Notes: generated by a model not told the origin, from the sequence alone. A DNA stretch of 64,000 nucleotides from Candidatus Vogelbacteria bacterium (GCA_903878275.1 CAIRHC010000009.1:11855-75854), one strand, 5' to 3'. Numbered from the stretch's first letter, positions 25,408 to 43,893 are shown. Program-made: numbers and translations.

Positions 25408-25665
25408 ATGTACCATCTCTACATCCTTGAATGTGCCGATAAAACTTTATACACCGGGATCACCACGGATTTGAAACGGCGGGTTTTTGAGCATAATAGC
25501 TCGGCACTTGGTGCCAAATATACTTCGGCTCGGCGACCGGTGGCGCTAGTTTATTCCCGACGATTTAAAAATCGCTCAAATGCCTCACGTGCCGAAGCGC
25601 AAATTAAAAAATTAACTAGATTGGAAAAAATAGCGTTGATTAAAAATTTTTCAATAAAAAAGTAA
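25408..25665 (+). CDS. GIY-YIG nuclease family protein (UPF0213-like)
   Basis: 'YHLYILECADKTLYTGITTDLKRRVFEHN' contains the GIY...YIG motifs. Confidence 0.7.
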   Translation: MYHLYILECADKTLYTGITTDLKRRVFEHNSSALGAKYTSARRPVALVYSRRFKNRSNASRAEAQIKKLTRLEKIALIKNFSIKK

Positions 25666-27100: not shown

Positions 27101-27148
27101 AGTTTTTAATAATTTTTCACTATGGGGTAAATTTGTTATAATAAGTAA

Positions 27149-28480
27149 ATGAATGTTCAGAAAATTTTACTTATTATTTTTCTGGCGTTTTTGCCGTTGG
27201 TAATTTTTGCCGCTAATTCTAATTCGACCAATTTCCAAGTGACCGATGGTGGTTTTAGCCCGTCGGGTTATTCATCGTCGCCCAGTTTTCAATTAAATAG
27301 TGCGGTGTCGCAAATCAGTATTGGCCCGAGTGCTTCGTCAAATTTAAATTTAAAATCTGGCTGGTTGTATTTTCCGGTGGTGAGTACGCCGGTCGTTTCG
27401 GCGACAGCTGGTGATAGTCAAGTGGCTTTATCTTGGACACCAGCGATCGGACTTTTGGGTTGGACGGTCGGTGGCTATTCGATCGGGTGGTCAGCGGTTT
27501 CGGGTGGACCATATACTTTGATTTCGAGCGATACCTCGACCAATTATACAAAAACCAGTCTTGCCAACAGCACGCCATATTATTTTGTGATTAAAGTAAA
27601 AGATGGTCTTGGTAATTTTATTAGCACTTCGACCGAGGTTTCGGCGACACCGGTGGCGACGGTTGTCACGCCACCGGGCGGAGGAGGCGGTTCTGGTGGC
27701 GGCGGAGGTGGTGGAGGAAGTACGCCCCCGTCGGCTGGTGGCAAAGTTACTTTTCGCGGGCGAGCTTACCCGATGTCCGACGTAACTCTTCTTCGTGATG
27801 GGCAATTTGTTGCCAAAACTAAATCTGGTCCCGATGCTAATTTTGAAATAAGTGTTTCGGATTTGGGAGCAGGGCAATATAACTTTGGAATCAACGCGGT
27901 AGATATTTTAGGTAACCAATCTTTGACGCAAACTTTTCCGGTCACTTTGACCAGTAGTGCCGGGACGAGCGTCGGAGGAATTTTTATCGCGCCATCGATT
28001 GCCGTTGATAAGTTGGAAGTAAAAAAAGGGGACAACTTGGCGATTTTTGGACGGACGGTTCCGAGTAGTGAAATTGTAATTGCCGTCAATTCAGAAAATG
28101 AAATTTTTGCCAAAACAGCGTCTGATAAAAGCGGTGCTTATTTGTACAACTTGGATACGGTGCCGCTAGAATTTGGTGACCACACTGCCAAATCAAAATC
28201 TGCGGTCAAAGGCGAAATTAGTCCTTTTGGTCAATCGGTGGCGTTTAAAGTTGGGACACAAAATATTTTAAAACAAGCGAGCGCCAAACCAAAATGTCCA
28301 GCCAAAGGTGATTTGAATGGCGATTGCAAAGTTAATTTAACCGATTTTTCCATTGCCGCTTATTGGTATAAACGATCAATTTCTGCTTCGTTTAAACCGA
28401 CCGAAAAAGAAAAGTTAAGTGGTGATGGAAAAGTTGATTTGGTTGATTTTAGTATTATTGCTTATTATTGGACCGGGTAG
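27149..28480 (+). CDS. Secreted surface protein with fibronectin-III-like domain, Gly-rich linker, Ig-like domain and a C-terminal type-I dockerin
   Basis: Signal peptide, then 'SATAGDSQVALSWTPA...YYFVIKVKDGLGN' (FN3-like) and linker 'PPGGGGGSGGGGGGGGSTPP'. The C-terminus carries two dockerin Ca-binding repeats, 'GDLNGDCKVNLTDFSIAAYWY' and 'LSGDGKVDLVDFSIIAYYW'. Confidence 0.6.
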   Translation: MNVQKILLIIFLAFLPLVIFAANSNSTNFQVTDGGFSPSGYSSSPSFQLNSAVSQISIGPSASSNLNLKSGWLYFPVVSTPVVSATAGDSQVALSWTPAIGLLGWTVGGYSIGWSAVSGGPYTLISSDTSTNYTKTSLANSTPYYFVIKVKDGLGNFISTSTEVSATPVATVVTPPGGGGGSGGGGGGGGSTPPSAGGKVTFRGRAYPMSDVTLLRDGQFVAKTKSGPDANFEISVSDLGAGQYNFGINAVDILGNQSLTQTFPVTLTSSAGTSVGGIFIAPSIAVDKLEVKKGDNLAIFGRTVPSSEIVIAVNSENEIFAKTASDKSGAYLYNLDTVPLEFGDHTAKSKSAVKGEISPFGQSVAFKVGTQNILKQASAKPKCPAKGDLNGDCKVNLTDFSIAAYWYKRSISASFKPTEKEKLSGDGKVDLVDFSIIAYYWTG

Positions 28481-28496
28481 TAGCTGGGTAAAAATT

Positions 28497-29426
28497 ATGA
28501 CCAACAAAATTTTTTTAATTTTATTTTCTTTTTTTATAATCAGTAGTTTTTTGGCTTTGCCGGTTTCGGCGACGACACTTGGTTTGGAAACAAATAATTT
28601 ACCTAATGGTGCGACACTGGCGACATTAATAGTTGATACTGAAAATGAAAAAATAAATGCCCTCTCTGGTTATGTGATATTTGATGGCGGGACTTTAGAT
28701 TGCCAGATAGGTTCGGATGCGAAGTCCATTATTAATTTATGGATCGAAAGACCAGCGGTTAATGTTGGTGACCAATCTTTTTATCAACAAAATTCAATTT
28801 TCGTGTCGGGTATCATCCCCGGTGGTTTTGTTGGGCAAGGGCAAATTATTTCTCTGGTTTGTCGGAAAAAAAATAAACTATCAGATGTTTCTGGATTTTT
28901 AAAAATTGATAGTGGTTTTAAAATTTTAACCAACGACGCTTCGTCGACACCGGTGACGATAAAGATTTTACCGACCAAAACTGCTGGCGCAGGTCTCGGT
29001 CAGGATTATTTAGCTCAAATAAAAACCGATAAAACAGCACCAGAAATTCAAGCGTTGGAAATTATCAAGGATGAAAATCTTTCGGGCGGAAAATCTTTAC
29101 TCGTTTTTAAAACAGCCGACAAAGAATCGGGGATTGACTATTCGGCGGTGCTCGAAACTGATAAAAATTTTGATACCAAAAAAGATGTCGGGCAATTAAA
29201 CAGTTTGACCGGTTGGATTACAACAGGTAGCCCATATGAATTAACCGATGAGGCACGAACAAAATATATTTATTTGAAAGTGGCTGATCGAGCGGGGAAT
29301 GTCAGCGTGGCGAGTTTATCCCCAGTTTCTAGTCCATATAAAATGATTCTGATTTTAGTTATAATTATGCTGGCAATAATCTTTTTAGCCAATAAGCTTT
29401 GGCATGGAAAAAATAAACAAAAATAG
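28497..29426 (+). CDS. Secreted/membrane-anchored protein with an N-terminal cohesin-like beta-sandwich domain and a C-terminal TM helix. The start is placed at the signal-peptide ATG, not at 28419.
   Basis: Signal peptide 'MTNKIFLILFSFFIISSFLALPVSA'. The domain 'LATLIVDTENEKINALSGYVIFDGGTLDCQIG...IINLWIERPAV...FVSGIIPGGFVGQGQIISLV' is paralogous to the N-domains of the next two genes. C-terminal TM 'ILILVIIMLAIIFLA'. Confidence 0.5.
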   Translation: MTNKIFLILFSFFIISSFLALPVSATTLGLETNNLPNGATLATLIVDTENEKINALSGYVIFDGGTLDCQIGSDAKSIINLWIERPAVNVGDQSFYQQNSIFVSGIIPGGFVGQGQIISLVCRKKNKLSDVSGFLKIDSGFKILTNDASSTPVTIKILPTKTAGAGLGQDYLAQIKTDKTAPEIQALEIIKDENLSGGKSLLVFKTADKESGIDYSAVLETDKNFDTKKDVGQLNSLTGWITTGSPYELTDEARTKYIYLKVADRAGNVSVASLSPVSSPYKMILILVIIMLAIIFLANKLWHGKNKQK

Positions 29427-31143
29427 TTCGTCAAAATTAAAAAAGTTTTTTCTAAATTCAGCGATTTTTGTCGGTGCATTGTTTTTGCTTTTCCCTAATC
29501 TGTCTTTTGGTGCTGATTTGAAAATTGGCGCGAATTATTCGACTTATCAAGTCGGCGACAATGTCTCGGTTCGAGTGTCGGTCGCTAGTCCTGGGCAGGC
29601 GATCAATGCCGTGTCTGGCACTTTAAAATTTCCCGCTGATAAATTGCAGGTTGTTTCATTGAGTAAGGCTAGCTCGGTAGTTAATTTGTGGGTGCAAGAA
29701 CCAGCTTTTTCTAATACCACCGGCGAAGTAAATTTTGAGGGTGCAATTTTGAATCCTGGTTTTGTCGGCGCTTCCGGCTTGGCTTTGACGATAAATTTTA
29801 AAGCCAAAAAAGAGGGGACAGTTAACCTCAATTATTCGGTTGGTTCGATTTTGGCGAATGATGGTCAGGGGACAAATGTGCTCGGAAAATTGGGGCAATT
29901 AAATTTAACGATTAAACCAGCGACAGCCGTACCAACTGTTCCAGTTTCGCCAACACCAAAACCAAATTCTGCGGATCTGACTCCCCTTGCAGTTATTTCG
30001 ACAACTCATACCGATGAAACCAAATGGTATAATAATAGTTTGCCGGAATTTTCTTGGGTGGTCCCGACCGGTGTGACCGCTCTTAATTTATCGCTCGATC
30101 AAAAAGATAACACCGATCCTGCCGAGCAAGTCGCTGGCAATACGAGTTCTTATAAAGCGCCAAACGCTTTGACGGATGGAGAGTGGTATTTCCATATCAA
30201 GTACAAAGTTGGTGGAAATTGGAGCCCAATCACTCATCGAAAATTACAGATTGATACTGGTGTGCCGGAAAAATTAAATATCAACGAAATTAAACAGACC
30301 GAAATCGGAAAGGCGAGCTTTGCTTACGATGGAAGTGATCAAGCGTCGGGGATTGACCGCTTTGAATTTCAAGTTGACGGTGCGTCGCCAGCAAATTTGA
30401 ATGAGACTTCTGGGATTTATAATACGCTATCGCTGGCTGACGGCGCTCATACTTTGCTAGTTAAAGTTTTTGATCGCGCTGGAAATGTGGCGACTAAAAA
30501 AATTGATTTTCAAATTGGGGGAGCCGTCTCCCCTAGTTTGTCGGCAAGTTTAGGTACTTGGCCATTGGTCATTATTATCGTTGCCGGAATTTTGTCGCTA
30601 ATTTTGGTGGTGATTTTAGCAATGCTCCTAATCATCAGCTGGCGACGGCTTGATGCCATTGAAAGTTTTTCACGAAAAGAACACGAAGAAAGTACCGAGC
30701 ATTTGCGCCAAGCGATTAGCTTGGTTGAATCTAGTTTGCGTTCAAGACAGGAATCTTCCTCGGCACCAGTGGTTAGTGTTCCGGTTGTCCATATTCCCAC
30801 ACCTCTACCACCAGTTGAGCCACCAGCACCAACTTCTGAACTAACTACAATTATTAAAAATGAAAACAACGACAGAGGCAGCATCGTTTTTCGTGGTCAA
30901 GGCAATCCGGGCGAAGCAATTGTGGTCTTGCGTGACGAAAAAATGTTGGCAGAAACTGCCGTGGGTCCGGACGGTCACTTTGAAGTCGGTTTGTCTGGTT
31001 TGATTCCCGGTTATTATCGCTTGTCGGTGACGACCGTAGAAAATTTAAATAAACGAAGTTTGCATCAAGTTTATCCGGTTTTGTTGTCGGCGGGAACCAC
31101 CTCTCTGATTAGTGGTTTGGTGATGAAAAATTTGCCAAATTAG
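29404..31143 (+). CDS. Membrane protein: signal peptide, cohesin-like domain, Ig/FN3-like region, single TM, and a C-terminal domain with an Ig-like fold
   Basis: 'VGDNVSVRVSVASPGQAINAVSGTLKFPADKLQVVSL...FEGAILNPGFVGASGLALTINFKAKKEGTVNL' resembles the cohesin fold. TM 'WPLVIIIVAGILSLILVVILAMLLII'. The C-terminal 'FRGQGNPGEAIVVLRDEKMLAETAVGPDGHFEV' is homologous to a domain of the dockerin protein. Confidence 0.5.
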   Translation: MEKINKNSSSKLKKFFLNSAIFVGALFLLFPNLSFGADLKIGANYSTYQVGDNVSVRVSVASPGQAINAVSGTLKFPADKLQVVSLSKASSVVNLWVQEPAFSNTTGEVNFEGAILNPGFVGASGLALTINFKAKKEGTVNLNYSVGSILANDGQGTNVLGKLGQLNLTIKPATAVPTVPVSPTPKPNSADLTPLAVISTTHTDETKWYNNSLPEFSWVVPTGVTALNLSLDQKDNTDPAEQVAGNTSSYKAPNALTDGEWYFHIKYKVGGNWSPITHRKLQIDTGVPEKLNINEIKQTEIGKASFAYDGSDQASGIDRFEFQVDGASPANLNETSGIYNTLSLADGAHTLLVKVFDRAGNVATKKIDFQIGGAVSPSLSASLGTWPLVIIIVAGILSLILVVILAMLLIISWRRLDAIESFSRKEHEESTEHLRQAISLVESSLRSRQESSSAPVVSVPVVHIPTPLPPVEPPAPTSELTTIIKNENNDRGSIVFRGQGNPGEAIVVLRDEKMLAETAVGPDGHFEVGLSGLIPGYYRLSVTTVENLNKRSLHQVYPVLLSAGTTSLISGLVMKNLPN

Positions 31144-31255
31144 TCGATCAAAACTTATCCACAAAATTAAGTTAAAAAGCCTGATTTTTCATATCAGTCA
31201 ACGGCAAAATACGTTATAATATTAAACATAGATTCATCATACAAATAAATAAAAA

Positions 31256-32755
31256 ATGATCGTTGATCGAAAGATAAAAGGTGTGTTGTTGTCAATTTTC
31301 ACTCTGGTGCTTTTTAGTTGGAGTGGAGTAGCTTTTTCGGCTGATCTTAAAGTTGTTACCAATAAAACAAATTATCAAGTTGGTGATATCGTTTCAGCGA
31401 GAATTATCTTGTCTTCAGCCGATCAATCGGTCAATGCCGTGTCAGGGACTTTGAAATTTCCGACGGATAAACTGGAAGTGACTTCACTTAGTAAATCTGG
31501 CTCGGTCATCAATCTTTGGGTGCAAGAACCGGATTTTTCAAATAGCACTGGTGAAGTCAGTTTTGAGGGTGCAATTTTAAATCCCGGTTTTACTGGTGCA
31601 TCTGGTCAATCGTTGTCAGTGAATTTTAAAGCCAAAAAAGCTGGCACGGCGACAATATCTTTTTCGACAGGTTCAATTTTGGCAAATGATGGTCAGGGTT
31701 CGAGTATTCTCAAAAAACTTGGTCAAACTTCTGTGACTATCGGCAGTACCAAAGCTGTTATTGAGCCGGCGATCGAAGTAGAAAAACCGGTTGAAGTTGA
31801 AACAACAATTGCGCCCAAAAAAGAAACGAAAAATCAATATCCTGATGTGCCAAGTATTGTTTCGCTGACCAATCCTGATCAAAGTCTTTGGTACAGCATT
31901 AATTACCCGCAGTTGTCTTGGACGTTACCGGAAGACGTGACTGATGTCAGTCTGATTTTTGATAACAAGGAAAAAACAATTCCGCCGACCAAATCGCAAG
32001 GTTTGTTTTCCTCTTATGTCGATGGCAAAAGCGTTGCTGATGGTAATTGGTATTTTCACTTAAGATTTAAAAATAAAATTGGCTGGGGACCAGTCGGGCA
32101 TTACAAATTAAATATCGACACAAAAGAACCGGAGCGCTTTGAGGTGAACGAAGTGAAATTGGGGCAAGGTTCGGCGGGTGCGCGGTTTGTTTTTGACGGT
32201 ACTGATGCTTTGTCTGGAATTGATCATTTTGAATTTCAAGTTGATGATTCGGAACCGCAAATTATCAACGCTGATTCAGTCAAAACTTTTGATACGCCAG
32301 ATTTGCGAGCCGGGCGACACATTCTCACCGCACGAGTGATTGATCGAGCGGGGAATTTGGTGGTGAGAAAATTAACCTTTGCCATTGATCCAGAATTGAC
32401 CGGTTCATTTGCCGTGCGAGTGGGTGACAATTTAATTTTGGTCTTATCAGTTTTGGTGCCGTTAATTATTTTGTTGATGGCGCTGATTTATATTTTACTA
32501 ATCAGCTGGAAAAAGCTATCAACAATTAAACGGCGTTTGCGAAAAGAGGTGCGAGAAGCCGAAGATGGCCTACATCAAGCCTTTGATTTGATTAAAGAAG
32601 ATTTGCAGGTACAAATGGAATTGTTGAAAAAAGCCAAAACCAAACGAAAATTGACGGCGATAGAAACAAAAATAATGAAAAATATCAAAGCCGATTTGAA
32701 TGAAGCCGAGAAATTTATTAAAAATGAAATTGAAGATATTTCCAAACAAATTTAA
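31256..32755 (+). CDS. Paralogue of the previous gene: cohesin-like domain, single TM, C-terminal coiled coil
   Basis: 'VGDIVSARIILSSADQSVNAVSGTLKFPTDKLEVTSL...FEGAILNPGFTGASGQSLSVNFKAKKAGTATI' is about 60% identical to the 29404 N-domain. TM 'LILVLSVLVPLIILLMALIYILLI'. Confidence 0.5.
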   Translation: MIVDRKIKGVLLSIFTLVLFSWSGVAFSADLKVVTNKTNYQVGDIVSARIILSSADQSVNAVSGTLKFPTDKLEVTSLSKSGSVINLWVQEPDFSNSTGEVSFEGAILNPGFTGASGQSLSVNFKAKKAGTATISFSTGSILANDGQGSSILKKLGQTSVTIGSTKAVIEPAIEVEKPVEVETTIAPKKETKNQYPDVPSIVSLTNPDQSLWYSINYPQLSWTLPEDVTDVSLIFDNKEKTIPPTKSQGLFSSYVDGKSVADGNWYFHLRFKNKIGWGPVGHYKLNIDTKEPERFEVNEVKLGQGSAGARFVFDGTDALSGIDHFEFQVDDSEPQIINADSVKTFDTPDLRAGRHILTARVIDRAGNLVVRKLTFAIDPELTGSFAVRVGDNLILVLSVLVPLIILLMALIYILLISWKKLSTIKRRLRKEVREAEDGLHQAFDLIKEDLQVQMELLKKAKTKRKLTAIETKIMKNIKADLNEAEKFIKNEIEDISKQI

Positions 32756-35700
32756 AATCTGGAAAATCTTGGTGATTTTTCTGTTGCTGGTAATTTTACC
32801 CGTTGGCTTTTTGGTAAAAGCTTCGACTGTTCCGGCGATAATTAGTTATCAAGGACGTTTGGCTGACGCTGATGGCAATTTGCTCGGTGGCGCTGGGACC
32901 GATTATAATTTCAAGATTTCTTTTTGGACTAGCCCGACGGTTGGTGCTGGTTCGCGTGTTTGGCCATCGTCTGCTCCGACGGCTTTCGTCTCGACCGTTC
33001 GTCACGGCTTATTTAATTTAAATATTGGCGATACGACTGGTGGTTATCCTGATGCACTTGATTATGATTTTTCAAGTAATGATAAAATTTATTTGCAAGT
33101 TGAAGTTTCTAGCGGCGGCGCTTACGAGACATTATCGCCACGCCAGCTGATGACCAGTACGCCGTTTGCGTCACTGGCGGGTGCGGTGTCTGGTTCTGGC
33201 GCTTCGACGATGGGCTCGCTTACTGTGACTGGAAATTCCACTACGACCAATGCCACGACCACAAATTTATATGCCAATTCTAGTATAGGTTTGAATGGTC
33301 TTTATGTTAACAATTGGTCTGATTTAGCACCTTATCTTCCGACAGCGGCTGGCTGGGGAACATCAAGCGATAGTATAAATTTTAATTCTTTATTAGATGC
33401 TAAAGATAAAGGATATTTTTTCGCTTCTTCTTCGGCTGATGTCTGGGGCGCGTCGAAAGGTTATCTAACTTCATATTCTGAAACCGATCCTGTTTGGACT
33501 TCCGAAAAAGCTGGTTACCTCACGACAGGTACTGCGGCTTCTACTTATCTTACTTTGTCTGCCTCTACCTCATTACCTTATCAGCCGGTTGGAAGTTATT
33601 TGATTACCGAATCTGATCCGATATTTATGGCTGCCTCGTCCTCGTTTCTAACTTTAAATAATTGGTTTGCCACTACTACTTGGGGCGGGTCATCATTAAG
33701 TGTTGGGACCAATAATACTTATGGCTCGCTAACTGCGATGGGCGGGACTACTTTTTCTACTGTTCCACCTTACGGCACAGCGTCGATCGGTCATATTTCT
33801 CATACTTCTGGTTGGGATGGTAGCGGGTTTTTGTTTAGTAATTCTTCTGTTGGTTCAAATGCTTTTTCGATGGTTTACAATGTCGATAAAGCTTGGTTTG
33901 GGGGAATTACTGATAGTTCTGGTGTCGCTTGGATGACGCTTGATGCTGGAGGTTTGCAATCATACGGTACTGTTTCTGGTACTAATTTATCCGGTACAAA
34001 CACTGGTGATGTTACTTTGGCGAACAATTTAAATGGCTTAACAATTTCTAATCAAGTTTTAACCTTGGGTCTAGCCTCAACCAATGCTACTGGTACTCTT
34101 TCTGCTACCGATTGGAATACTTTCAATAATAAACAGCCGGCTGGTAATTATCTCACTTCATATTCAGAGACTGATCCTGTTTGGACTTCCGAAAAAGCTG
34201 GTTATCTTACCACTGGTGCTGCCGCTTCCACTTATTTAACTATTTCGGCTTCCACCTCAATTAGGTCTCTGCCAAATCTCTCCATTACCAAATCTCAAGT
34301 TTCTGATTTTGGCTCACCGCTTTATTCATACTCTGAAACCGATCCACTATACGCTTCAGCTTCATCTTCTATCTTAAGATTTGGCACAACCTCTGATGTT
34401 TTGACTGAAGGTGCGACAAATAAATTTTACACTGACACTAAAGTTGCAAATTACATAAATAGTTCCTCGACGCTTGGTTTTCAAAACTTTACGGCTGGTC
34501 ACGGCACCACCACAAATTTTTATGCTGGCACTAGTCTTGGTTTGAATAGTCAATATATTAGCAATTGGTCGGAACTCGCGGCTTTTTTGCCGACTGTAAC
34601 CGGATGGAGTACTACGAGTGATAGTGTGAATTGGCAAGATAATTGGAATTCGGTAAAAGGGGATTACTTAACTATCTCCAGTGCCGGCTCTACTTATCTA
34701 CCACTTTCAGCGTCCACTTCTTTAGCTTATGTTAAAACCGAAACTGATCCGGTGTGGACGTCAGAAAAATCTGGTTATCTCACTACTGGTCTGGCAGCTT
34801 CGACATATCTTACTTTGGCCGCCTCTACTTCTTTAGCTTATCAACCAATCGGAAATTATCTCACTTCATATTCAGAAACTGATCCAGTTTGGACTTCCGA
34901 AAAAGCCAGTTATCTCACTACTGGTGCCGCCGCTTCCACTTATTTAACAATTTTGGCTTCCACCTCAATTAGGTCTCTGCCAAATCTTTCAATTACTAAA
35001 TCTCAAGTCTCTGATTTTGGCTCACCGCTTTATTCATACTCTGAAACCGATCCCGTTTTTACCGCGTGGAACAAAACGACCGGTATCACTATCTCCGAAT
35101 CGCAAATTACAGATTTGCAAGACTACCTAACTACCGAATCTGATCCGGTCTGGACATCAGAAAAAGCTAGTTATCTCGCTACTTCGGGCAATGGTGGCTC
35201 GTTGACTGGTTTGACTAAGACTCAAGTTGGTTTATCAAATGTTGACAATTATTCTTCAACCACGCTCGAAGTTTTGTCGGCGACCAAACTAAAAACGGCA
35301 CGTACTATAAATGGTGTATCGTTTGATGGTACGGGAAATATTACGGTGACTGATGCTGGTTACACTGCCGCTTCGTCATCGATTCTACGTTATGGCACAA
35401 CAACAGATGCCTTGACCCAAGGCTCGGTCAATAAATTTTATGCGCAAGCTTTGGTGTGGAATGATATTTGGGCATCCTCAACTTTAGCTACGACATTAAA
35501 CAATTCTGCCACTGCTTACGGTTGGGGCAATCACGCCGATGCTGGTTATCTTACCACCGGTGCCGCCGCTTCCACTTATTTAACTATTTCGGCTTCCACC
35601 TCAATTAGGTCTCTGCCAAATCTTTCAATTACCAAATCTCAAGTTTCCGATTTTGGCTTACCGCTTTATTCGTATACTGAAACTGATCCGGTCTGGAATG

Positions 35701-38700
35701 CTACGAAGGGCAATTATCTTTTGTTGGCTGGTGGTACGATGACTGGTGATTTGACGATTAGTAATAAAAATTTGACGGTCACAGGCACCTCCACTTTAGC
35801 GACTACGACCATCACCAATCTTTCTGGAAATATTATTACGAGCAATGATGTTCGCACGGCGATTACCGATCTCGATACTCGTCTTTATAATATGCAAAAC
35901 ACCACCAAAGAAATGACCGGTTTTCCAAACCGTACCGATACTTCTATTTCTTTCAATAACATAAATCGCAATTTCACCATCACTGGTACTAATTTCAAAA
36001 TTTACAGCGCCGGCAAAGAATATGTCAAAAATACCGAATCGATTCAACTTGCCAATACAAACGGTGTCCAATTTGTTTATTATTCGCCAGTTACTTTAAC
36101 TTTGAGTACTAGTACGACCGTTTGGAATTTTAATGATGGTACTGTTCAGATTGCTACCGTGCACTGGGATGGCACGACTGGTTTGCTTGGCGAGGAACGT
36201 CATGGTCTGACAATGGACAATGCCACACACGAATATTTGCATCACACCGTGGGTACGCGTTATCAATCTGGTCTGACTGGCACTTTTAATACAAACAATA
36301 CTTTGTCTGTTACGGCTGGTTCAATTGATGATGAAGACATCGAAGATTCTGTTGCTTTGACTACGACAACAAGAATAATTTATCATCTTAACGCTACTAA
36401 TTTTACCCAATCGGCAGTCGGCACGAGTTTCTTTGATAAGACCTGTACTGGTTCGAATCTTTGTTATGACAACGGCACCGGTAAAGTGGCAGCGACTGGT
36501 AATAATTATGTTGCCTATTGGATTTTTGCAACCAACGATGCTTCAAATGGTGTCTATGTGTTAATGGGACAAAGACAAGATACAAGTTTGGCAAATGCCC
36601 AAGCGAACGCCACATATTCAAGTTTGACTTTGGGTAACTTACCATTCGCTGAAATGAAATTACTTTATCGTTTGATTGTGAGAAACAATGCTGGTAATAC
36701 TTTGGATACTAGTGATTATCGATCGGTTTCAAACCTGCCGTCTGGCACTTATGTCGCGACTGCTCACAATGTTTTGACCGGTCTTGATTATGCTTCGTCT
36801 GGTCATACTGGTTTTGCCGGCACAGGGGTAGATAATACTTTTACCGGTCACGATATTTTTGCTTCTTTGTTTGCTACCAATGCTTCGAGTACTAATGCTA
36901 CCACCACAAATCTTCAAGTGGTCGCCACCTCGACGGTCGGTGGTTTAAGTATTGGTTCGTTGTCTGGAATCTTAAAAGCGGTGGCGGGTGCCGTGACCAC
37001 TTCTTTGATTGACTTAGCCAATGACGTCACCGGTGTGCTTGGTGGCACTCACGGTGGTACGGGTCTTTCGACTGTTACCAACAACGAACTCCTAATCGGC
37101 TCGACCGGAAATACTTGGCTACAAATTGCGACTTCATCACTGGGAATGCTCACGACCAATGTCGCCGAAGGCACTAGACTTTATTATACCGATGTCCGAG
37201 CTCGTGGCGCAATTTCTTCGGGTGCACTTGGTCTGACTTACAATTCTGGTACAGGGGCTTTTTCCTTGACGACTGATTATAATATTCCGTTGACAGCTTC
37301 GACGACAAATTGGAATACAGCGTTTAATTGGGGCAATCATGCTGATGGCGGTTATCTGAAAACTTCAGGTGGTACAATGTCTGGAATATTAACCATAAAT
37401 AACAATCTAAATTCTACTGGTACTTCTACTTTGGCGACGACAACTATGTCTTATGGCTCTAAGATTGGTTATGGTAATGAATATTTTACAGTAAATCAAT
37501 ATCCGGTAGCGGGGAGTATCCTTAGCGGGACTATTCCGATAATTAGCTTTAACAGCCCCAACGCTTGGGGTTCTGATGTGGGAGGTTTCGCTGATTCCTT
37601 GGCTATCTTAGAAACGGGTCAGGCTGATGATCCTGTCGGTATTAATTTTGTCGCCAGTGATTTCGCCAACAACTTGAATGTCGGATCGTTAACTTATGCC
37701 ACAACCTCTAATGTTTTTGTTTTATCTAATGCCAACGGGAATAATGTTGACCTGTCTTTGGGTGGAGGTGTTTTTAGTGGCAGCGTTGTGTCTGACGTCT
37801 ACAAAATTAATGGTCCGGCTAACATCAATTCTTTCCTTGCCACTGACGGTGCTGGTCAAATTATCGCAACGACAACACCAGTTCTTTATGGAGCAACTAC
37901 TGACTCATGGAACACTGCTTATTCTGATCGCTTAAAATGGGATGGTGGCTCCAGCGGTCTTAACGCTTCTACTGCGCGGACCTCTCTGGGGTTAGTAATT
38001 GGTACTAATGTCCAAGCTCAAAACGCGGGGCTTTCAGATATCGCCGGTCTGACATTGACGGACGGTAATTTTATTGTTGGCAACGGTTCTAACTGGGTCG
38101 CTGAAAGTGGAGCGACCGCGCGGACGTCAATTGGTTTGGGTAGTGTGGAAAATACAGCACTCTCTACTTGGGCTGGTTCGTCTTATCTCACTACGGCTGG
38201 CAATCTTACTGCGACCGGTTTGCAAGTAAATGGCAATTCGACTACGACTGGTTTTAGCACTTTAGCAACAACCACCATCTCTCGTTTAGATGTTGGGAAC
38301 ACGACTCTTTTTTATTCCACTCCGATGGGTAGTTTGATGAGTCAGAAAATAACTTCAGCTTTTGCGGGTCTGACTGGTTTTGTTAATACCACTGGTGCTG
38401 GTGATTGGGTTATGATTATGCCGCCTGGAGATTTGTGGCCAGGAGCTCCAGAAGTTGATGCTTCCGTAGGTGGAGTTACGGGTAATTTTTCTTTGACCTC
38501 AACTGCCCCTGATACTTTAGGTATGTTTTATGGTAATCAATGGAACGGTTCCTATTCTGGAGATTTGTCAGGCTTACTTCAGGGGATTTCTAATAACTAT
38601 GCAACTAAGATTGAATCTGGAGCGACGGTTAGTACTCTATCCGGGCTGTCTAGTTTTTCTTCAGATGTTGAAAATCAGGGAGCAATTACCGGAGATTTTA

Positions 38701-39647
38701 CAAATTTCTTAGTCAACAATGTATCTGGCGGTGGCACTTTAAGTGGTAATTTTTATGGTTTAAAAATTGGTGGTGCAGGCGAGATGGGCGGAACTCAAAA
38801 TTACTCCATTTATTCCGATGGCGGTTTAAATTATTTTGCTGGCAATGTTGGTATCGGTGTAGAAGTGCCTACTCATCCTTTAGAATTTGCAGGCGGTGCT
38901 TATTCTGATGGTCTTACTTGGAGTAATGGCTCTGATCGCAACATCAAAGAAAACTTTGTTACTCTTGATTCGACGGAAATTTTAAATAAAATAAATCAAT
39001 TACCAATCATGCAGTGGAATTATAAAACACAGGAGGCGACTACCACTCATATTGGACCAATGGCACAAGATTTTTACGCTTTGTTTGGTGTTGGCGGTTC
39101 GGATAAATCGATTTCCACAATTGATCCATCGGGCATTGCTCTTGTCGGTATCCAAGCGTTGAGTGAAAAAACGAAAACGCTCGAAGACAATCTGAAAATA
39201 CTTTTGGCAATGTCTGGCAACTGGGGCATTGGGGCGAGCGGGGAATTGATGCTCGAAAAAATCACGACCAAAAAAGCGGAAGTGCAAAATGATATTCAAA
39301 TTGGTTCGCCAGAAAAAAGAATCGGTATCACTTTGTTTGACGAACAAACCGGCGAGCCGTATTGTTTGAAAATTTCTGGCGGGCAAACTAAGACGACAAA
39401 TGGAAAATGCTCGGATGCTGACGGTGATAGCGTTGGAAGTGGTGGGACAAGTGCTGGTAGTAATCAGGCGGGAAATAATTCATCGTCTAGTGGTAATACG
39501 GCGAGTAGCACCGATGATCAGAGTAATTCATCGACAACACCAGAAGTAGTGCCAGAAAATCCAACACCAGAGACAACTCCCGCACCAGAAGTTTCTTCTC
39601 CACAAGATGGACAAACTCCTCCCGCTGATTCGGCACCGGCATCTTAA
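32700..39647 (+). CDS. Giant (2315 aa) surface fibre-like protein: N-terminal anchor, shared N-module, tandem S/T-rich repeats, C-terminal intramolecular-chaperone (peptidase S74, phage tail-fibre type) domain and a P/T/S-rich tail
   Basis: N-terminal 'ISYQGRLADADGNLLGG...' module. Repeats 'YLTSYSETDPVWTSEKAGYLTTGAAASTYLT'. C-terminal 'GNVGIGVEVPTHPLEFAGG...SDRNIKENFVTLDSTEILNKINQLPIMQWNYK...GPMAQDFYALFG...IALVGIQAL' with the SDxRxK hallmark. The alternative start at 32724 overlaps the upstream stop. Confidence 0.7.
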   Translation: MKPRNLLKMKLKIFPNKFKIWKILVIFLLLVILPVGFLVKASTVPAIISYQGRLADADGNLLGGAGTDYNFKISFWTSPTVGAGSRVWPSSAPTAFVSTVRHGLFNLNIGDTTGGYPDALDYDFSSNDKIYLQVEVSSGGAYETLSPRQLMTSTPFASLAGAVSGSGASTMGSLTVTGNSTTTNATTTNLYANSSIGLNGLYVNNWSDLAPYLPTAAGWGTSSDSINFNSLLDAKDKGYFFASSSADVWGASKGYLTSYSETDPVWTSEKAGYLTTGTAASTYLTLSASTSLPYQPVGSYLITESDPIFMAASSSFLTLNNWFATTTWGGSSLSVGTNNTYGSLTAMGGTTFSTVPPYGTASIGHISHTSGWDGSGFLFSNSSVGSNAFSMVYNVDKAWFGGITDSSGVAWMTLDAGGLQSYGTVSGTNLSGTNTGDVTLANNLNGLTISNQVLTLGLASTNATGTLSATDWNTFNNKQPAGNYLTSYSETDPVWTSEKAGYLTTGAAASTYLTISASTSIRSLPNLSITKSQVSDFGSPLYSYSETDPLYASASSSILRFGTTSDVLTEGATNKFYTDTKVANYINSSSTLGFQNFTAGHGTTTNFYAGTSLGLNSQYISNWSELAAFLPTVTGWSTTSDSVNWQDNWNSVKGDYLTISSAGSTYLPLSASTSLAYVKTETDPVWTSEKSGYLTTGLAASTYLTLAASTSLAYQPIGNYLTSYSETDPVWTSEKASYLTTGAAASTYLTILASTSIRSLPNLSITKSQVSDFGSPLYSYSETDPVFTAWNKTTGITISESQITDLQDYLTTESDPVWTSEKASYLATSGNGGSLTGLTKTQVGLSNVDNYSSTTLEVLSATKLKTARTINGVSFDGTGNITVTDAGYTAASSSILRYGTTTDALTQGSVNKFYAQALVWNDIWASSTLATTLNNSATAYGWGNHADAGYLTTGAAASTYLTISASTSIRSLPNLSITKSQVSDFGLPLYSYTETDPVWNATKGNYLLLAGGTMTGDLTISNKNLTVTGTSTLATTTITNLSGNIITSNDVRTAITDLDTRLYNMQNTTKEMTGFPNRTDTSISFNNINRNFTITGTNFKIYSAGKEYVKNTESIQLANTNGVQFVYYSPVTLTLSTSTTVWNFNDGTVQIATVHWDGTTGLLGEERHGLTMDNATHEYLHHTVGTRYQSGLTGTFNTNNTLSVTAGSIDDEDIEDSVALTTTTRIIYHLNATNFTQSAVGTSFFDKTCTGSNLCYDNGTGKVAATGNNYVAYWIFATNDASNGVYVLMGQRQDTSLANAQANATYSSLTLGNLPFAEMKLLYRLIVRNNAGNTLDTSDYRSVSNLPSGTYVATAHNVLTGLDYASSGHTGFAGTGVDNTFTGHDIFASLFATNASSTNATTTNLQVVATSTVGGLSIGSLSGILKAVAGAVTTSLIDLANDVTGVLGGTHGGTGLSTVTNNELLIGSTGNTWLQIATSSLGMLTTNVAEGTRLYYTDVRARGAISSGALGLTYNSGTGAFSLTTDYNIPLTASTTNWNTAFNWGNHADGGYLKTSGGTMSGILTINNNLNSTGTSTLATTTMSYGSKIGYGNEYFTVNQYPVAGSILSGTIPIISFNSPNAWGSDVGGFADSLAILETGQADDPVGINFVASDFANNLNVGSLTYATTSNVFVLSNANGNNVDLSLGGGVFSGSVVSDVYKINGPANINSFLATDGAGQIIATTTPVLYGATTDSWNTAYSDRLKWDGGSSGLNASTARTSLGLVIGTNVQAQNAGLSDIAGLTLTDGNFIVGNGSNWVAESGATARTSIGLGSVENTALSTWAGSSYLTTAGNLTATGLQVNGNSTTTGFSTLATTTISRLDVGNTTLFYSTPMGSLMSQKITSAFAGLTGFVNTTGAGDWVMIMPPGDLWPGAPEVDASVGGVTGNFSLTSTAPDTLGMFYGNQWNGSYSGDLSGLLQGISNNYATKIESGATVSTLSGLSSFSSDVENQGAITGDFTNFLVNNVSGGGTLSGNFYGLKIGGAGEMGGTQNYSIYSDGGLNYFAGNVGIGVEVPTHPLEFAGGAYSDGLTWSNGSDRNIKENFVTLDSTEILNKINQLPIMQWNYKTQEATTTHIGPMAQDFYALFGVGGSDKSISTIDPSGIALVGIQALSEKTKTLEDNLKILLAMSGNWGIGASGELMLEKITTKKAEVQNDIQIGSPEKRIGITLFDEQTGEPYCLKISGGQTKTTNGKCSDADGDSVGSGGTSAGSNQAGNNSSSSGNTASSTDDQSNSSTTPEVVPENPTPETTPAPEVSSPQDGQTPPADSAPAS
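33460..35700 (+). repeat. Intragenic tandem repeats: four copies of a ~150-195-nt unit, three of them near-identical (about 34150-34345, 34861-35055, 35545-35690)
   Basis: Near-exact nucleotide repeats read directly, e.g. '...gaaaaagctggttatcttaccactggtgctgccgcttccacttatttaac...caattaggtctctgccaaatct...'. They encode '...TSEKAGYLTTGAAASTYLTISASTSIRSLPNLSITKSQVSDFGSPLYSYSETDP'. Confidence 0.7.
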
Positions 39648-39879: not shown

Positions 39880-42800
39880 ATGCAATTCCGAGACTCGAAA
39901 ATTCAGAGTTTTCTTTTAATATTTGCATTTGTCGCCACCCTTACTTCAGTAGGGCTATTTGGAGTAAATAAAGCCGAAGCGGCACCCAATCTCACCATAA
40001 ACTATCAAGGTAAAATGACTGATAATCTCGGAGTGACTTTAGCTGATGGTAATTATACTTTTGTCTTTAGTTTGTACACTGGAGCCTCTGGTGGTTCAAA
40101 CGTTTGGACCGAGACCCAAACTGTCACCATCACCAATGGATTATTCTCCACCATGCTTGGTTCGGTCACACCATTTACTGATAATCTTTTTAATCAAACA
40201 TTATATCTTGGTGTCAAAGTCGGAGCTGATCCAGAAATGACGCCCAGGAAAATTATCGGTTCGGTTCCATCGGCTCTTGAAGCGGAAAAACTAAATGGTC
40301 TGGCGGCTGTCTCTTTTCTTCGATCCGATATTGCTAATGCCACTGGTACTATCAATAATTTCAACAACACCAATGCTACTTCATCCAATTTGAATGTTTC
40401 TAATCTTTTGACAGTGGAAGGGGATTTGACTGTTTTGGGGGATAGTAATCTTGCCACTACAACGACTGGCAATCTCACCGCTGGTTCTACTTTGTATGTC
40501 AAAAACGGTCAGGTTGGAGTGGGATTCGATCCGGCAGTTTTGCTCGGTACTGTTTTTGGCACCAATAAAACTTGGACAGAGACAACCGGGCAGTTGGCTT
40601 CCAACTATTTTAATTCAACTTTTAGCCCGACGGGAGCGTCCGATGCTTTTCAGACTGGTCTTTACAATGTCGTGACCGCTGATGGCTCTAATAACCAACT
40701 TATTTTGGTGGGTCAAACGGTGAGTTCTGTCTACGGTGGTACAGCCAACTTAGCCTACTTGCAAGGGGCATCTATCTCTTCGGATTTGGCAAACACTGGT
40801 AGTATTACGAGTGCGTCGGCTGTTAGTGGTCAGATTAATAATGGTTTGGATAGTAATGGTGGAAATATTACTGATGCTGCTGTCTTTTCCGCAAAAACCA
40901 GTTTGGGTGATTCGGCTGGTGTAGTGACCAATGCTGCTAATTTTGACTCTCGATTCACTGTTCAGAGTGGATCAATAGTTAACGCTTACGGTGCTTATCT
41001 GGCTAATCCTTGGCTTCCTGGTTCTGGCACCATCACTAATTTGTATGGTTTGTATGTCCAAGATCAAACTAAGGGTAGTAACTTAAATTACAATATTTAT
41101 TCGGCTGGAGCGACCAGCAAAAATTATTTGGAAGGTAATTTGACGGTCGGAGGCAATGCCACGGCAACCAGCTTTGCTTTGAATAACGAAAAATTTACCA
41201 ATTGGGTTGGCTCTAATCTTTACAACAACAATGGGATTCTTGGAGTTACTACGACACCGACTTTTAGTAGTCTGACGGTAAATGGTAATGCCACGGCAAC
41301 CAGCTTTGCTTTGAATAACCAGACCTTTACCAACTGGCTTGGTTCTAATCTTTATAATAGTAACGGTACTCTTGGCGTTACTACCACACCTTCTTTTAGT
41401 GGTCTAACTGCGACCTACGCAACCACAACAAATCTTAACGCTGGCTACCTTAATGTTTCTGGTGGCACCCAAACGGTTGTTGGTGGAACAAACATATCTT
41501 TACCGGCGGTTAAGGGTCTTTCGGTCAATGAAAAAATAGTCGGGAATTACTTATACATGGTTTTTATGTCTCCGACCTCTACCGATCAATTAAGAATCGT
41601 GGATATTTCTGATCCAACTAATCCCAAGGTGGTGGGTGGACAGAATTTGTCTTTACCAGTTTATGGAGCGAGGTGGATAGATGTTGTCGGTAAATATGCT
41701 TATATTGGTTTTGAAAATAATCCCTACGGTTTTCGGATTGTAGATATTTCTGATCCAACTAATCCTTTTATCGTGGGTGGTGATAAGCTACAATTTGGTT
41801 CGTCTATCAGAGGGGTAAAAGTTGTCGGTAAATATGCTTATCTGGCACGCTATACCCCAAACGGATTTTCTATTGCTAGTTTAATTATTCTAGATATTTC
41901 CGATCCTTATGATCCCAAGGTGGTTAGTCCTGACACTATTCCTGGTTTGGTTAGTGAAGCCCGGTCTATTGATGTCGTCGGTAAATATGCTTATCTAGTA
42001 TCTTACTTTAATGATCCGTTGGATCCTGGTAATACTGGTCCCAACGTTTTACGTATCGTTGACATTTCTAACCCAGCGAACCCTGTTGTGGTTGGCGGTT
42101 CGTCTTTAGTTTTGCCAGACTATGCCCGGCAGGTTCAAGTAGTTGGTCGTTACGCTTACGTCATTTTTGATTCTTTTGGTTCCGTTGAAGGGATTGACCA
42201 GGGGTTAAGACAAAACGAAGCGTTTAGGATTTTGGATATTTCTGATCCCACCAACCCCGTTGTTGTTGGAGGAGATAATTTAAATTTTAGCACAGGTCTT
42301 GTTTCCGGCGGTGGCCTAAGATCTCTTTATGTGGCGGACGGTCTTGCTTATACAACCGAAGGTAATGGAGTTTTGCATGTTATTGACGTGTCTAGTTCAA
42401 CCAATCCGGTTTCTCGAAGTCAGTTTTTACTAGAAAAGTCTCCTGGCTACTCTCTTGCGATTTGGGCACTTGCTGTGTCCGGTAACTATGCTTATGTCGG
42501 CACACCTGATACTCCTTTTTCTTCAAACTCAACGAACGTTTTGAGAGTGGTGGATTTAAAGGGTTTAAAGACTGGTACGGCAAACATTGGCACTCTAAAA
42601 ATTGGCTCACTTAATGCCGAATCTGATATTGTGACAGCTCGGGATATTTTTGCCAACGGTCTTAACCTTGGTGTGGGGGGGATTATCACAGATGGTAGTA
42701 TTAGTGTTATTGGTACTACTACATCCTCTTTCTTTGGTGGCAACCTTGGTTTGGGTACAACCACTCCAGCCTACACTCTAGTCGTCGGCAACGGCAGTAC

Positions 42801-43893
42801 TACCGACACCGCTCGTTCCATTCAAGTCGCCTATGGTGGTATCTGTGTTGATGATGATGGTTGGTGTAATGCGACAGCCGGAGTCATCTCGGCGGTCTCA
42901 TACACCACTGGTCATGCTGACCTAGCCGAAAACTACCAAGCTTTTGAAGACAATCTAGAAGCCGGAGACATAGTCTCGGTAACTAATGAAAATAACTCTA
43001 CCGCTACAAAACTCGGTGACACCTTCGGCATTAAAAAAGCCAATCAAAAAACCGACATCATTGGTATCGTTTCCACCGCTCCCGGTGTCTTACTTGGTTC
43101 ACCAAATGGTGAAGCCAACACCAAAAAACTCCCCGTCGCTCTCTCTGGACGAGTCCCACTCAAAGTCAATCTTGAAGGCGGTGATATCAATTTCGGTGAT
43201 CCCATCACGCTATCTTCAATCCCTGGTATTGGGATGAAAGCGACTTCTTCCACTGAAACGATTGGTACGGCTTTAACTTCATTTGATGCTAATTCAACTC
43301 AAACTGAACCAGGCATCGGACAAATCACTGTTTTTGTTAATCTCGGCTATTCACATATCGATAACCAAATCAGTCAAGGTAAAATCAATGCCACCAACTT
43401 CTGGTCACTAGATGAAACAACTGGACAAATTAAAGTTCTCGCTCCGCTTGATTTATCTGGTCTTGATATTAAAAATGTAAAATCCATTACTTCCGCTTCC
43501 GGTAATTGGAGTATTAGTGATGATGGGATGCTGGTGGTGAAGAAAATCGAGACAGATGAAATTACGACCGAAACTGGCGTGACCGTGAAAGACAAGATGT
43601 CTGGTGGCTACAATTGTATTTATGTTGAAGGTGGTCAGATGAAAAATAAAGTTGGGTCTTGCGTTGAGCCGGTTTTGGCGCCGATTTCAAATGGCAATAA
43701 TCAAAATGAAACTGTTAATGCCAGTTCGTCTGATTCGAGTGGTGGGCAAGGTCAAGATAATGGCTCGACAACTCCACCTGTTGAATCGCCAACCTCAACA
43801 ACTCCACCGGAATCTGTCGTTCCACCGGTTTCTGAAACGCCACCAGCACCGGTTGAGGCGCCAGCTTCCGAGCCGGTGGTGCCTGGTCCGTAG
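39880..43893 (+). CDS. Giant (1337 aa) surface protein: signal peptide, N-module shared with the 32700 protein, G/T/S-rich repeats, LVIVD-type beta-propeller repeats, and a P/T/S-rich C-terminal tail
   Basis: Signal peptide 'MQFRDSKIQSFLLIFAFVATLTSVGLFGVNKAEA'. 'INYQGKMTDNLGVTLADGNYTFVFSLY' parallels the 32700 N-module. Repeats 'LRIVDISDPTNPKVVGG', 'FRIVDISDPTNPFIVGG', 'LIILDISDPYDPKVV', 'LRIVDISNPANPVVVGG', 'FRILDISDPTNPVVVGG', 'LHVIDVSSSTNP' (LVIVD). Tail '...TPPVESPTSTTPPESVVPPVSETPPAPVEAPASEPVVPGP'. Confidence 0.7.
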   Translation: MQFRDSKIQSFLLIFAFVATLTSVGLFGVNKAEAAPNLTINYQGKMTDNLGVTLADGNYTFVFSLYTGASGGSNVWTETQTVTITNGLFSTMLGSVTPFTDNLFNQTLYLGVKVGADPEMTPRKIIGSVPSALEAEKLNGLAAVSFLRSDIANATGTINNFNNTNATSSNLNVSNLLTVEGDLTVLGDSNLATTTTGNLTAGSTLYVKNGQVGVGFDPAVLLGTVFGTNKTWTETTGQLASNYFNSTFSPTGASDAFQTGLYNVVTADGSNNQLILVGQTVSSVYGGTANLAYLQGASISSDLANTGSITSASAVSGQINNGLDSNGGNITDAAVFSAKTSLGDSAGVVTNAANFDSRFTVQSGSIVNAYGAYLANPWLPGSGTITNLYGLYVQDQTKGSNLNYNIYSAGATSKNYLEGNLTVGGNATATSFALNNEKFTNWVGSNLYNNNGILGVTTTPTFSSLTVNGNATATSFALNNQTFTNWLGSNLYNSNGTLGVTTTPSFSGLTATYATTTNLNAGYLNVSGGTQTVVGGTNISLPAVKGLSVNEKIVGNYLYMVFMSPTSTDQLRIVDISDPTNPKVVGGQNLSLPVYGARWIDVVGKYAYIGFENNPYGFRIVDISDPTNPFIVGGDKLQFGSSIRGVKVVGKYAYLARYTPNGFSIASLIILDISDPYDPKVVSPDTIPGLVSEARSIDVVGKYAYLVSYFNDPLDPGNTGPNVLRIVDISNPANPVVVGGSSLVLPDYARQVQVVGRYAYVIFDSFGSVEGIDQGLRQNEAFRILDISDPTNPVVVGGDNLNFSTGLVSGGGLRSLYVADGLAYTTEGNGVLHVIDVSSSTNPVSRSQFLLEKSPGYSLAIWALAVSGNYAYVGTPDTPFSSNSTNVLRVVDLKGLKTGTANIGTLKIGSLNAESDIVTARDIFANGLNLGVGGIITDGSISVIGTTTSSFFGGNLGLGTTTPAYTLVVGNGSTTDTARSIQVAYGGICVDDDGWCNATAGVISAVSYTTGHADLAENYQAFEDNLEAGDIVSVTNENNSTATKLGDTFGIKKANQKTDIIGIVSTAPGVLLGSPNGEANTKKLPVALSGRVPLKVNLEGGDINFGDPITLSSIPGIGMKATSSTETIGTALTSFDANSTQTEPGIGQITVFVNLGYSHIDNQISQGKINATNFWSLDETTGQIKVLAPLDLSGLDIKNVKSITSASGNWSISDDGMLVVKKIETDEITTETGVTVKDKMSGGYNCIYVEGGQMKNKVGSCVEPVLAPISNGNNQNETVNASSSDSSGGQGQDNGSTTPPVESPTSTTPPESVVPPVSETPPAPVEAPASEPVVPGP

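Follow-up and report, generated by a model that had tools for sequence, protein, structure and literature searches.

The stretch of 64,000 nucleotides (nt) analysed here, hereafter the window, comes from a Candidatus Vogelbacteria bacterium (GCA_903878275.1, CAIRHC010000009.1:11855-75854) and harbors four genes, termed A, B, C, and D, which are tightly packed on one strand and which we found at the coordinates given by an earlier model-generated reading of the same DNA (the sequence-only reading). According to our analysis, gene A encodes a protein that ends in a dockerin, while each of B, C, and D encodes a protein that opens with a cohesin. The likely start codon of B (ATG 28497) lies 16 nt past the stop codon of A; the positions of genes, domains, and adjacent features are collected in Table 1. 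In cellulosomes, the high-affinity pairing of cohesin and dockerin is the classic principle of construction. To our knowledge, its role beyond polysaccharide degradation is mostly unknown, and the envelopes and host-attachment structures of the Candidate Phyla Radiation (CPR)/Patescibacteria are almost uncharacterised.

Table 1. Position of the four genes, their cohesin and dockerin modules, and neighbouring features in the window
Feature	Position	Strand	Details
Best sigma-70-like promoter match	27114..27142	+	TTTTCA-17-TATAAT with TG; best match in the 26-44.5 kb stretch, directly before A
Gene A	27149-28480	+	443 amino acids (aa); open reading frame (ORF) call
Dockerin module of A	28304..28477	+	aa 386-443; loop 1 DLNGDCKVNLTD, loop 2 KLSGDGKVDLVD
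Gene B	28497-29426	+	309 aa; ORF opens at GTG 28419, likely start ATG 28497
Cohesin-like domain of B	28545..28967	+	cohesin hidden Markov model (HMM) and profile-profile comparison
Gene C	29404-31143	+	579 aa; overlaps B by 23 nt
Cohesin domain of C	29482..29937	+	aa 27-178; AlphaFold2 (AF2) and Foldseek
C-terminal immunoglobulin (Ig)-like (Big_6-like) domain of C	30874..31119	+	aa 491-572; homologous to Ig of A
Gene D	31256-32755	+	499 aa
Cohesin domain of D	31313..31759	+	aa 20-168; cohesin HMM E 1e-60
Giant G1	32700..39647	+	2315 aa; N-terminal signal anchor, repetitive fibre-like body, Peptidase_S74 (intramolecular chaperone) at aa 2078-2129
Giant G2	39880..43893	+	1337 aa; signal peptide, LVIVD repeats, conserved C-terminal module

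The dockerin of A and the cohesins of B, C, and D

Protein A is composed of a signal peptide (aa 1-22), a small beta-rich N-domain (23-80), an FN3 domain (~81-166), a poly-Gly linker (~175-190), two Ig-like domains (~198-375), and the C-terminal dockerin, in this order. Here and below, signal peptides and transmembrane (TM) helices are predictions from simple hydropathy scans. The dockerin shows the tandem loop-helix segments that define such modules, with repeats at aa 387-408 and 424-443, and its calcium-loop strings at nt 28310 and 28412 are the sole such pair detected in the window by a six-frame regular-expression search. The sequence-only reading had described two textbook dockerin repeats at the end of A. 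The dockerin itself and the canonical loop 1 (DLNGDCKVNLTD) stand up to scrutiny, whereas loop 2 (KLSGDGKVDLVD) does not deserve the epithet, since it lacks the Asp at position 1, where most relatives have Lys or Arg, and, in the window's A, has K and S at positions 1 and 3, respectively.

When A was searched as a single sequence with phmmer, weak matches to the dockerins 2y3n_B and 2yik were obtained. A profile of the C-terminal region built from 41 members of the A family retrieved nine solved dockerins from the PDB sequences and nothing else below E 0.01, with E-values extending from 9e-7 (2y3n_B) to 1.6e-3 and the further matches being 4fl4_A, CelS (2mte/1daq), 5nrm_B, 2yik, 5nrk_B, and CelD (4cj0/1clc). 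The sequence-only reading had also suggested a structural model of the repeats as a check, and the AF2 model of aa 372-443, with a predicted local distance difference test score (pLDDT) of 91, agrees with its assignment, as it displays the three-helix dockerin layout, with helices at positions 26-35, 45-51, and 60-68 of the 72-aa segment. The 12 best Foldseek matches of this model are all dockerin-containing chains, with weak E-values, as expected for 60 residues; the best-fitting one is 2y3n_B, with a root mean square deviation of 2.0 A and a Foldseek probability of 0.99. The C terminus of A is thereby confirmed, by profile and by modelled fold, as a real dockerin.

Across 182 relatives of A, the calcium-coordinating positions of loop 1 are almost invariably kept (D1 in 179, N3 in 181, D5 in 182, N9 in 178, and D12 in 182), while loop 2 retains D5 and D12 and has K (60 sequences), R (40), or D (27) at position 1. 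Both dockerin helices of the family keep the motif DFSIxAY. Furthermore, a Cys at position 6 of loop 1 covaries with a Cys located at most 10 residues upstream, both being present in 120 sequences and neither in 42, with 20 mixed cases, and the two versions of the region around loop 1 read CPxKGDLNxDC and xxLKGDLNxDG. The pair in the window's A is formed by Cys383 and Cys392, nine residues apart (28295-28330, aa 383-394), and probably builds a disulfide that clamps loop 1. Such a disulfide, as suggested by the covariation, would point to an extracytoplasmic location of the A dockerin.

The three genes that follow A had been proposed to share homologous cohesin N-domains, and our comparisons agree, except that these domains measure ~145-150 aa and not the ~110 aa previously estimated; they begin at the predicted mature N terminus. 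C and D match each other with E 4e-126 and 43% identity across 486 aa, their cohesins being 60% identical in the family alignment. B is more distant (E 5e-7 against C and 2e-7 against D), and its cohesin identity rests on profile-profile comparison, in which the B-type profile matches the C/D-type profile in hhalign at 99.9% (E 1.8e-32). In addition, a cohesin HMM built without B-like sequences recovers all 72 B-type genes collected, the window's B among them at E 4.4e-9.

Searches of the PDB sequences, carried out both with a single sequence and with the cohesin profile, gave marginal cohesin matches only (E 0.045-0.12), so that a fold comparison was required to decide on cohesin identity. 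The AF2 model used for this purpose is that of the domain of C (aa 26-180, 38 family sequences) and has a pLDDT of 94.7. Its best 50 Foldseek matches in the PDB are all cohesins (best E 7.8e-9, TM-scores of 0.6-0.74), which agrees with the fold that the sequence-only reading had assigned to the N-domains and leaves no other fold among these matches. The cohesin fold is a nine-stranded beta-sandwich of the jelly-roll type. The highest TM-scores belong to OlpC (4dh2, 0.74) and OlpA (3ul4, 0.71), both of which are single-cohesin surface anchors, and the non-cellulosomal cohesins of Clostridium perfringens and Archaeoglobus fulgidus are found among the structural matches as well. That B, C, and D each open with a cohesin is confirmed by these sequence and profile comparisons together with the modelled fold of C.

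In the model, the invariant cohesin residues N43, W71, P75, G94, G97, and D128 are located in or beside strands 3, 5, 6, and 8, which form the sheet by which cellulosomal cohesins bind dockerins. The cohesin of the window's B has diverged furthest among the three, as the NDGxGT sequence that is near-invariant at the end of strand 8 has decayed to NDASST. An insertion is also seen in this cohesin, around aa 70-80 of the domain.

A single C-terminal TM helix is predicted for each of B, C, and D, whereas the sequence-only reading had credited two of the proteins with such a helix; that of B lies at aa 283-301. In B, the signal peptide is followed by the cohesin-like domain, one Ig-like domain with a weak DUF7743/Big_13-like match, the TM helix close to the end of the 309 residues, and an 8-residue basic tail. 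C consists of a signal peptide, the cohesin, a two-part Ig-like stalk (Big_13, 45 bits), a long TM helix (~aa 386-412), and, beyond it, RR, a Pro-rich linker, and a C-terminal Ig-like domain. In D, the signal peptide and the cohesin (20-168) are followed by an Ig-like stalk (186-390), a TM helix (~393-415), and a coiled-coil tail (416-499), which is predicted to be cytoplasmic and is conserved across most related loci. With one cohesin and one cell-anchoring element, the TM helix, per protein, B, C, and D have the composition of single-cohesin surface anchors. The Ig-like domain which had been noticed as common to A and C was recovered (A 198-280, C 492-574; E 6e-15, 34% identity). In C, it is located past the TM helix and an Arg/Lys cluster and is accordingly predicted by the hydropathy scan to be cytoplasmic, and a post-TM Ig-like domain recurs in the close relatives L001 (12161-13564) and L003 (11366-12448).

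Conservation of the cassette across Patescibacteria

The four genes represent a conserved operon of the Patescibacteria. We retrieved 1161 matches for the A family, with 50-69% identity over the full length, and 486 for the C family, both from Patescibacteria/Parcubacteria metagenome bins. When each species was represented by a single genome, at least 469 genomes carried a relative of A, with labels including Buchanan-, Magasanik-, Vogel-, Taylor-, Nomura-, Uhr-, and Kaiserbacteria and Minisyncoccia. The locus L077 bears the last of these labels, which stands for a class with a cultured member. A full-library profile search gave 2081 clusters at E≤1e-30, a count that is inflated by giant proteins made of FN3 repeats.

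The gene order is near-invariant, which we consider established. Among the loci from different species in which the sequence continues for 3 kb or more past A, a cohesin gene begins at most 600 bp downstream of A in 70 of 71, and in 60 of these 70 the first such gene is of the B type. Two cohesin genes are present in 46 of the 71 loci and three in 23, while one locus has five and another has one. For these comparisons, loci were clustered by single linkage and the ORFs of related loci were called by ourselves. A dockerin HMM applied to all ORFs of 83 loci, up to 10 kb on each side of A, gave 84 matches, all of which belong to the A family. Three natural fusion proteins that unite cohesins of the B and C types were also identified, namely, P0021 (871 aa), P0055 (784 aa), and P0037 (886 aa).

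Variants of the A family retain the Ig-Ig-dockerin stalk beneath longer or shorter N-terminal heads (P0257, P0262, P0279, P0295, P0310, P0315, P0332, P0355, P0282, and P0301), and several of them exceed the Pfam Dockerin_1 threshold, with 31-35 bits. No enzyme domain was detected with Pfam in the ten stalk variants tested. The recurrence of the same stalk under other, non-enzymatic heads fits an adaptor designed as a stalk plus a head.

These variants also bear on whether the locus could be a true enzyme display system resembling a cellulosome, an amylosome, or a toxin complex, as might be supposed from the presence of both module types and from the proximity of the cohesin model to cellulosomal cohesins. 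However, the single dockerin of the 64 kb resides on a protein without an enzyme domain, as do the dockerins of the stalk variants tested, and each cohesin protein bears one cohesin, with no multi-cohesin scaffoldin. Moreover, a Pfam scan of 32 window ORFs revealed neither a glycoside hydrolase nor a carbohydrate-binding module (CBM) nor any other hydrolase, which confirms the earlier remark that polysaccharide degradation genes are missing nearby. A cellulosome or amylosome was rejected on gene content, as the window contains no multi-cohesin scaffoldin, enzymes, or CBM, and enzyme display in any form appears improbable in the extreme.

One metagenome-assembled genome (CAYZGX01) contains two copies of the whole cassette, L018 and L021, each with its own giant protein. 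The copies are 94% identical in A, 81% in B, 74% in C/D, and 84% in the giants, so that divergence grows from A to B to C/D; they may be either paralogues or mixed strains and were not used as evidence. As to previous annotation, some relatives have been automatically named "cohesin domain-containing protein" or "dockerin type I repeat-containing protein" by NCBI. No paper describing the operon was found in the literature on cohesin and dockerin in Patescibacteria, Parcubacteria, or CPR.

Proposed pairing, adjacent giant proteins, and possible role of the cassette

Taken together, we think it rather likely that the four genes form a cell-envelope cassette of Paceibacteria-type CPR bacteria based on a non-cellulosomal cohesin-dockerin pair, in which the dockerin of A would bind the cohesins of B, C, and D. 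We infer this pairing from the near-invariant adjacency of the genes and from the fact that no other dockerin occurs nearby, as well as from the location of the invariant cohesin residues on the dockerin-binding sheet and the presence of DFSIxAY in both dockerin helices.

Several observations weigh against this proposal. The comparison with Pfam models that the sequence-only reading had suggested yielded a mixed outcome. C scores 23.9 bits with Cohesin (PF00963), just under the gathering cut-off of 24.1, the dockerin of A (386-438) reaches 19.5 bits with Dockerin_1 (PF00404), under the cut-off of 22.9, and no match to Cohesin was obtained for B and D at E≤1. The families straddle these thresholds: among the matches listed, a precomputed PF00963 match is present in 28 of 120 members of the C family and a PF00404 match in 25 of 120 relatives of A. 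The Asp at position 1 of loop 2 is missing from ~85% of the relatives; dockerins with one loop have been described as functional in Ruminococcus flavefaciens (PMC12270676). In addition, one dockerin gene faces two to five cohesin genes, a stoichiometry that is unexplained, the predicted cytoplasmic Ig tail of C fits no simple surface model, and A is unusually well conserved for a host-contact protein.

Some of these observations would be equally at home in an alternative scenario, where the folds are correctly assigned and the proteins are not partners, the cohesins binding glycan, a host surface, or each other and the dockerin acting as a calcium-stabilised cap or as a binder of some other target. 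The sub-threshold Pfam scores, the degenerate second calcium loop, and the presence of one dockerin for several cohesins are compatible with it, as are the many non-cellulosomal cohesin- and dockerin-like modules without a known partner, to the extent that the survey of Peer et al. (2009) is reported in PMC10066038. Nevertheless, this scenario seems unlikely to us in light of the adjacency of the genes, which is near-invariant across hundreds of species, of the fusions of B-type and C-type cohesins in single proteins, and of the conservation peaks in those strands and helices that form the interface of solved complexes.

The cassette is followed in the window by the genes of two giant proteins, G1 and G2. 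Both possess a common N-terminal module after the signal sequence (ISYQGRL / INYQGKM) and a common C-terminal module, with unrelated bodies between them, and the C-terminal module is also common to 47 of 60 large flanking proteins elsewhere. In G1, the N-terminal module covers aa 40-205 and the C-terminal one aa 2086-2250, while the C-terminal module of G2 is located at aa 933-1230. In 63 of 68 loci, the cassette has a large ORF on the same strand beside it; this ORF ends at most 4.5 kb upstream of A in 58 of them and, as in the window, is found downstream only in five more. A link of the giants to the cassette is thus supported by synteny. With regard to dockerins, none was found in G1 and G2 by the six-frame regular-expression search, nor in any non-A ORF of the 83 loci by HMM. 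Direct docking of the giants onto the cohesins was therefore rejected, and they would not plug into them as cellulosomal enzymes do. Of the proposal in the sequence-only reading that the cassette is a non-cellulosomal scaffold for displaying the downstream giants, the non-cellulosomal character and a looser link persist, while direct display finds no support.

The missing dockerins of the giants leave room for a different function, namely, that of a general envelope scaffold without a specific tie to the giants, in which A would be a housekeeping strut or spacer spanning the wall and the S-layer, or would bind the wall of its own cell. The identity of 50-69% over the full length of A across many candidate orders resembles that of a structural housekeeping protein more than that of an adhesin. 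Furthermore, accessory genes are often located between the giant and A in other loci (L009, L011, L015, L026, and others), and these encode F4, a class-A beta-lactamase-like, peptidoglycan-related protein of ~335 aa (Beta-lactamase2, E 4e-38), F2, a protein of ~130 aa with a TM helix and a conserved domain without a Pfam match (47 loci), and F6, a small membrane protein of ~150 aa (8 loci). MurJ and FtsX, encoded in the window, would be in keeping with the same function. On the other hand, F2, F4, and F6 were looked for in the window and none was found, and the regular presence of same-strand giants, whose end modules are kept while their bodies vary, speaks for a functional link. On balance, we consider a scaffold of this general kind possible and rather unlikely.

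Over such a general strut we favour, tentatively and by a narrow margin, a role of the cohesin-dockerin cassette as a platform associated with the fibre proteins encoded beside it. According to the mechanism that we propose, B, C, and D would be exported via their N-terminal signal peptides and each kept in the cytoplasmic membrane by its single C-terminal helix, with the cohesin at the mature N terminus atop a stalk of one Ig-like domain in B and two in C and D. Secreted A would plug its C-terminal dockerin into these cohesins, probably in a calcium-dependent manner through loop 1, and docking would tether the Ig-Ig stalk of A to the outer face of the membrane, while its FN3 domain and N-domain would form a head held away from the cell beyond the flexible poly-Gly linker. 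The coiled-coil tail of D and the Ig-like tail of C may offer a cytoplasmic handle for the complex. The complex would in this way serve as an anchoring or organising platform tied to the adjacent large fibre-like proteins, with A as the adaptor and without direct docking of the giants.

A more specific version of this platform, about which we are doubtful, has the cassette mount the giants, with B, C, and D holding A and the conserved N-domain/FN3 head of A gripping the conserved end module of giants that are hypervariable in all other parts. If it were true, the host-contact fibres of these episymbionts would be coupled to the membrane and, by way of the tails that C and D are predicted to extend into the cytoplasm, to the inside of the cell, and a cohesin-dockerin machine for fibre display, not enzyme display, would exist across the CPR. 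The cassette may in any case show how giant fibre proteins thought to contact hosts are mounted. With its four small proteins and a predicted 1:1 interaction, it offers a testable handle on surface building in tiny cells, and a minimal natural membrane-anchored cohesin-dockerin pair would be of use for protein engineering.

The remaining genes of the window are those of an ordinary chromosome, encoding FtsX, CTP synthase, GpsA, an AddA-like helicase-nuclease, RNase J, GroEL, and LemA, together with an M48 peptidase, a class II ribonucleotide reductase, MurJ, LepA, TsaD, and thioredoxin reductase. Interspersed among them are genes of a possible mobile or defence type, at 12352-13155 (minus strand), 22324-23160, 24458-25105, and 25408-25665, the candidates being a Bro-N protein, an N6/N4 DNA methylase, a DUF3800 protein, and a small ORF that is GIY-YIG-like by eye only. 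The Bro-N protein and the DNA methylase, along with the Peptidase_S74 domain of G1, a domain characteristic of the tail spikes and fibres of phages, might suggest a prophage or tail-fibre module. This is very improbable, however, since no capsid, terminase, or tail genes were found in the window, the cassette lies amid housekeeping genes and is vertically conserved with constant order in the genomes of at least 469 species, and every one of its proteins carries a signal peptide or a TM anchor. The prophage was rejected on this gene content.

With respect to transcription, a perfect TATAAT with an upstream TG is found directly before A (27137-27151), and the -10 box stops 6 nt short of its ATG. 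Such a short distance means that the mRNA of A may be leaderless. The promoter match is weak evidence, given that the total of promoter-like sites in the region is no higher than in shuffled sequences. A second TATAAT is located ~35 nt before D (31215-31220).

Comparison with known cohesin-dockerin systems

Among characterized systems, OlpA and OlpC of Clostridium thermocellum and ScaE of R. flavefaciens likewise employ one cohesin on a cell-bound protein for capturing one dockerin protein. They are, however, anchored by S-layer homology domains or sortase, whereas the predicted anchor of B, C, and D is a C-terminal TM helix that continues into a cytoplasmic tail. What OlpA, OlpC, and ScaE bind is for the most part an enzyme or a scaffoldin of a polysaccharide-degrading machinery, while the sole ligand candidate for B, C, and D is A, a non-enzymatic FN3/Ig protein, and the identity between the C cohesin and cohesins of the OlpA/OlpC type amounts to only 11-22%. 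As for the dockerin, A is similar to the type I dockerins of CelS/Cel48 (1daq, 2mte, and 2y3n_B) in its duplicated loop-helix of ~22 residues, its three helices, and its loop 1 of the form DxNxDxxxNxxD. The A family differs from them in having mostly Lys or Arg at position 1 of loop 2, the covarying Cys pair, and the family-specific DFSIxAY.

Cohesin and dockerin modules outside cellulose degradation, often present in low copy, were surveyed by Peer et al. (2009), as far as that work is cited in PMC10066038. Non-cellulosomal proteins among the structural matches of the window's domains include the A. fulgidus cohesin 2xdh and C. perfringens NagH/NagJ (2ozn, 2vo8, and 2jh2). In C. perfringens, the modules are part of secreted toxins that are glycoside hydrolases, and the archaeal ones occur without a defined partner or operon, whereas the pair in the window belongs to a fixed operon with membrane anchors, which is conserved throughout a whole CPR class and accompanied by genes of giant fibre proteins. 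Non-cellulosomal cohesin-dockerin modules as such are already known, as are the domain-level names in public annotation. What is new here is the predicted TM anchor with cytoplasmic tails, the single non-enzymatic dockerin adaptor, the class-wide CPR operon, and the linkage to giant fibre genes.

A further parallel is provided by the Omnitrophota, which are ultra-small and probably host-dependent and for which dockerin modules in giant surface proteins have been proposed to function in attachment (bioRxiv 10.1101/2023.11.21.568195; PMC10066038). In that case, the dockerin repeats are located inside the giant protein and no operon with a cohesin partner has been described, whereas the window features a separate small dockerin protein accompanied by its own set of cohesin anchors.

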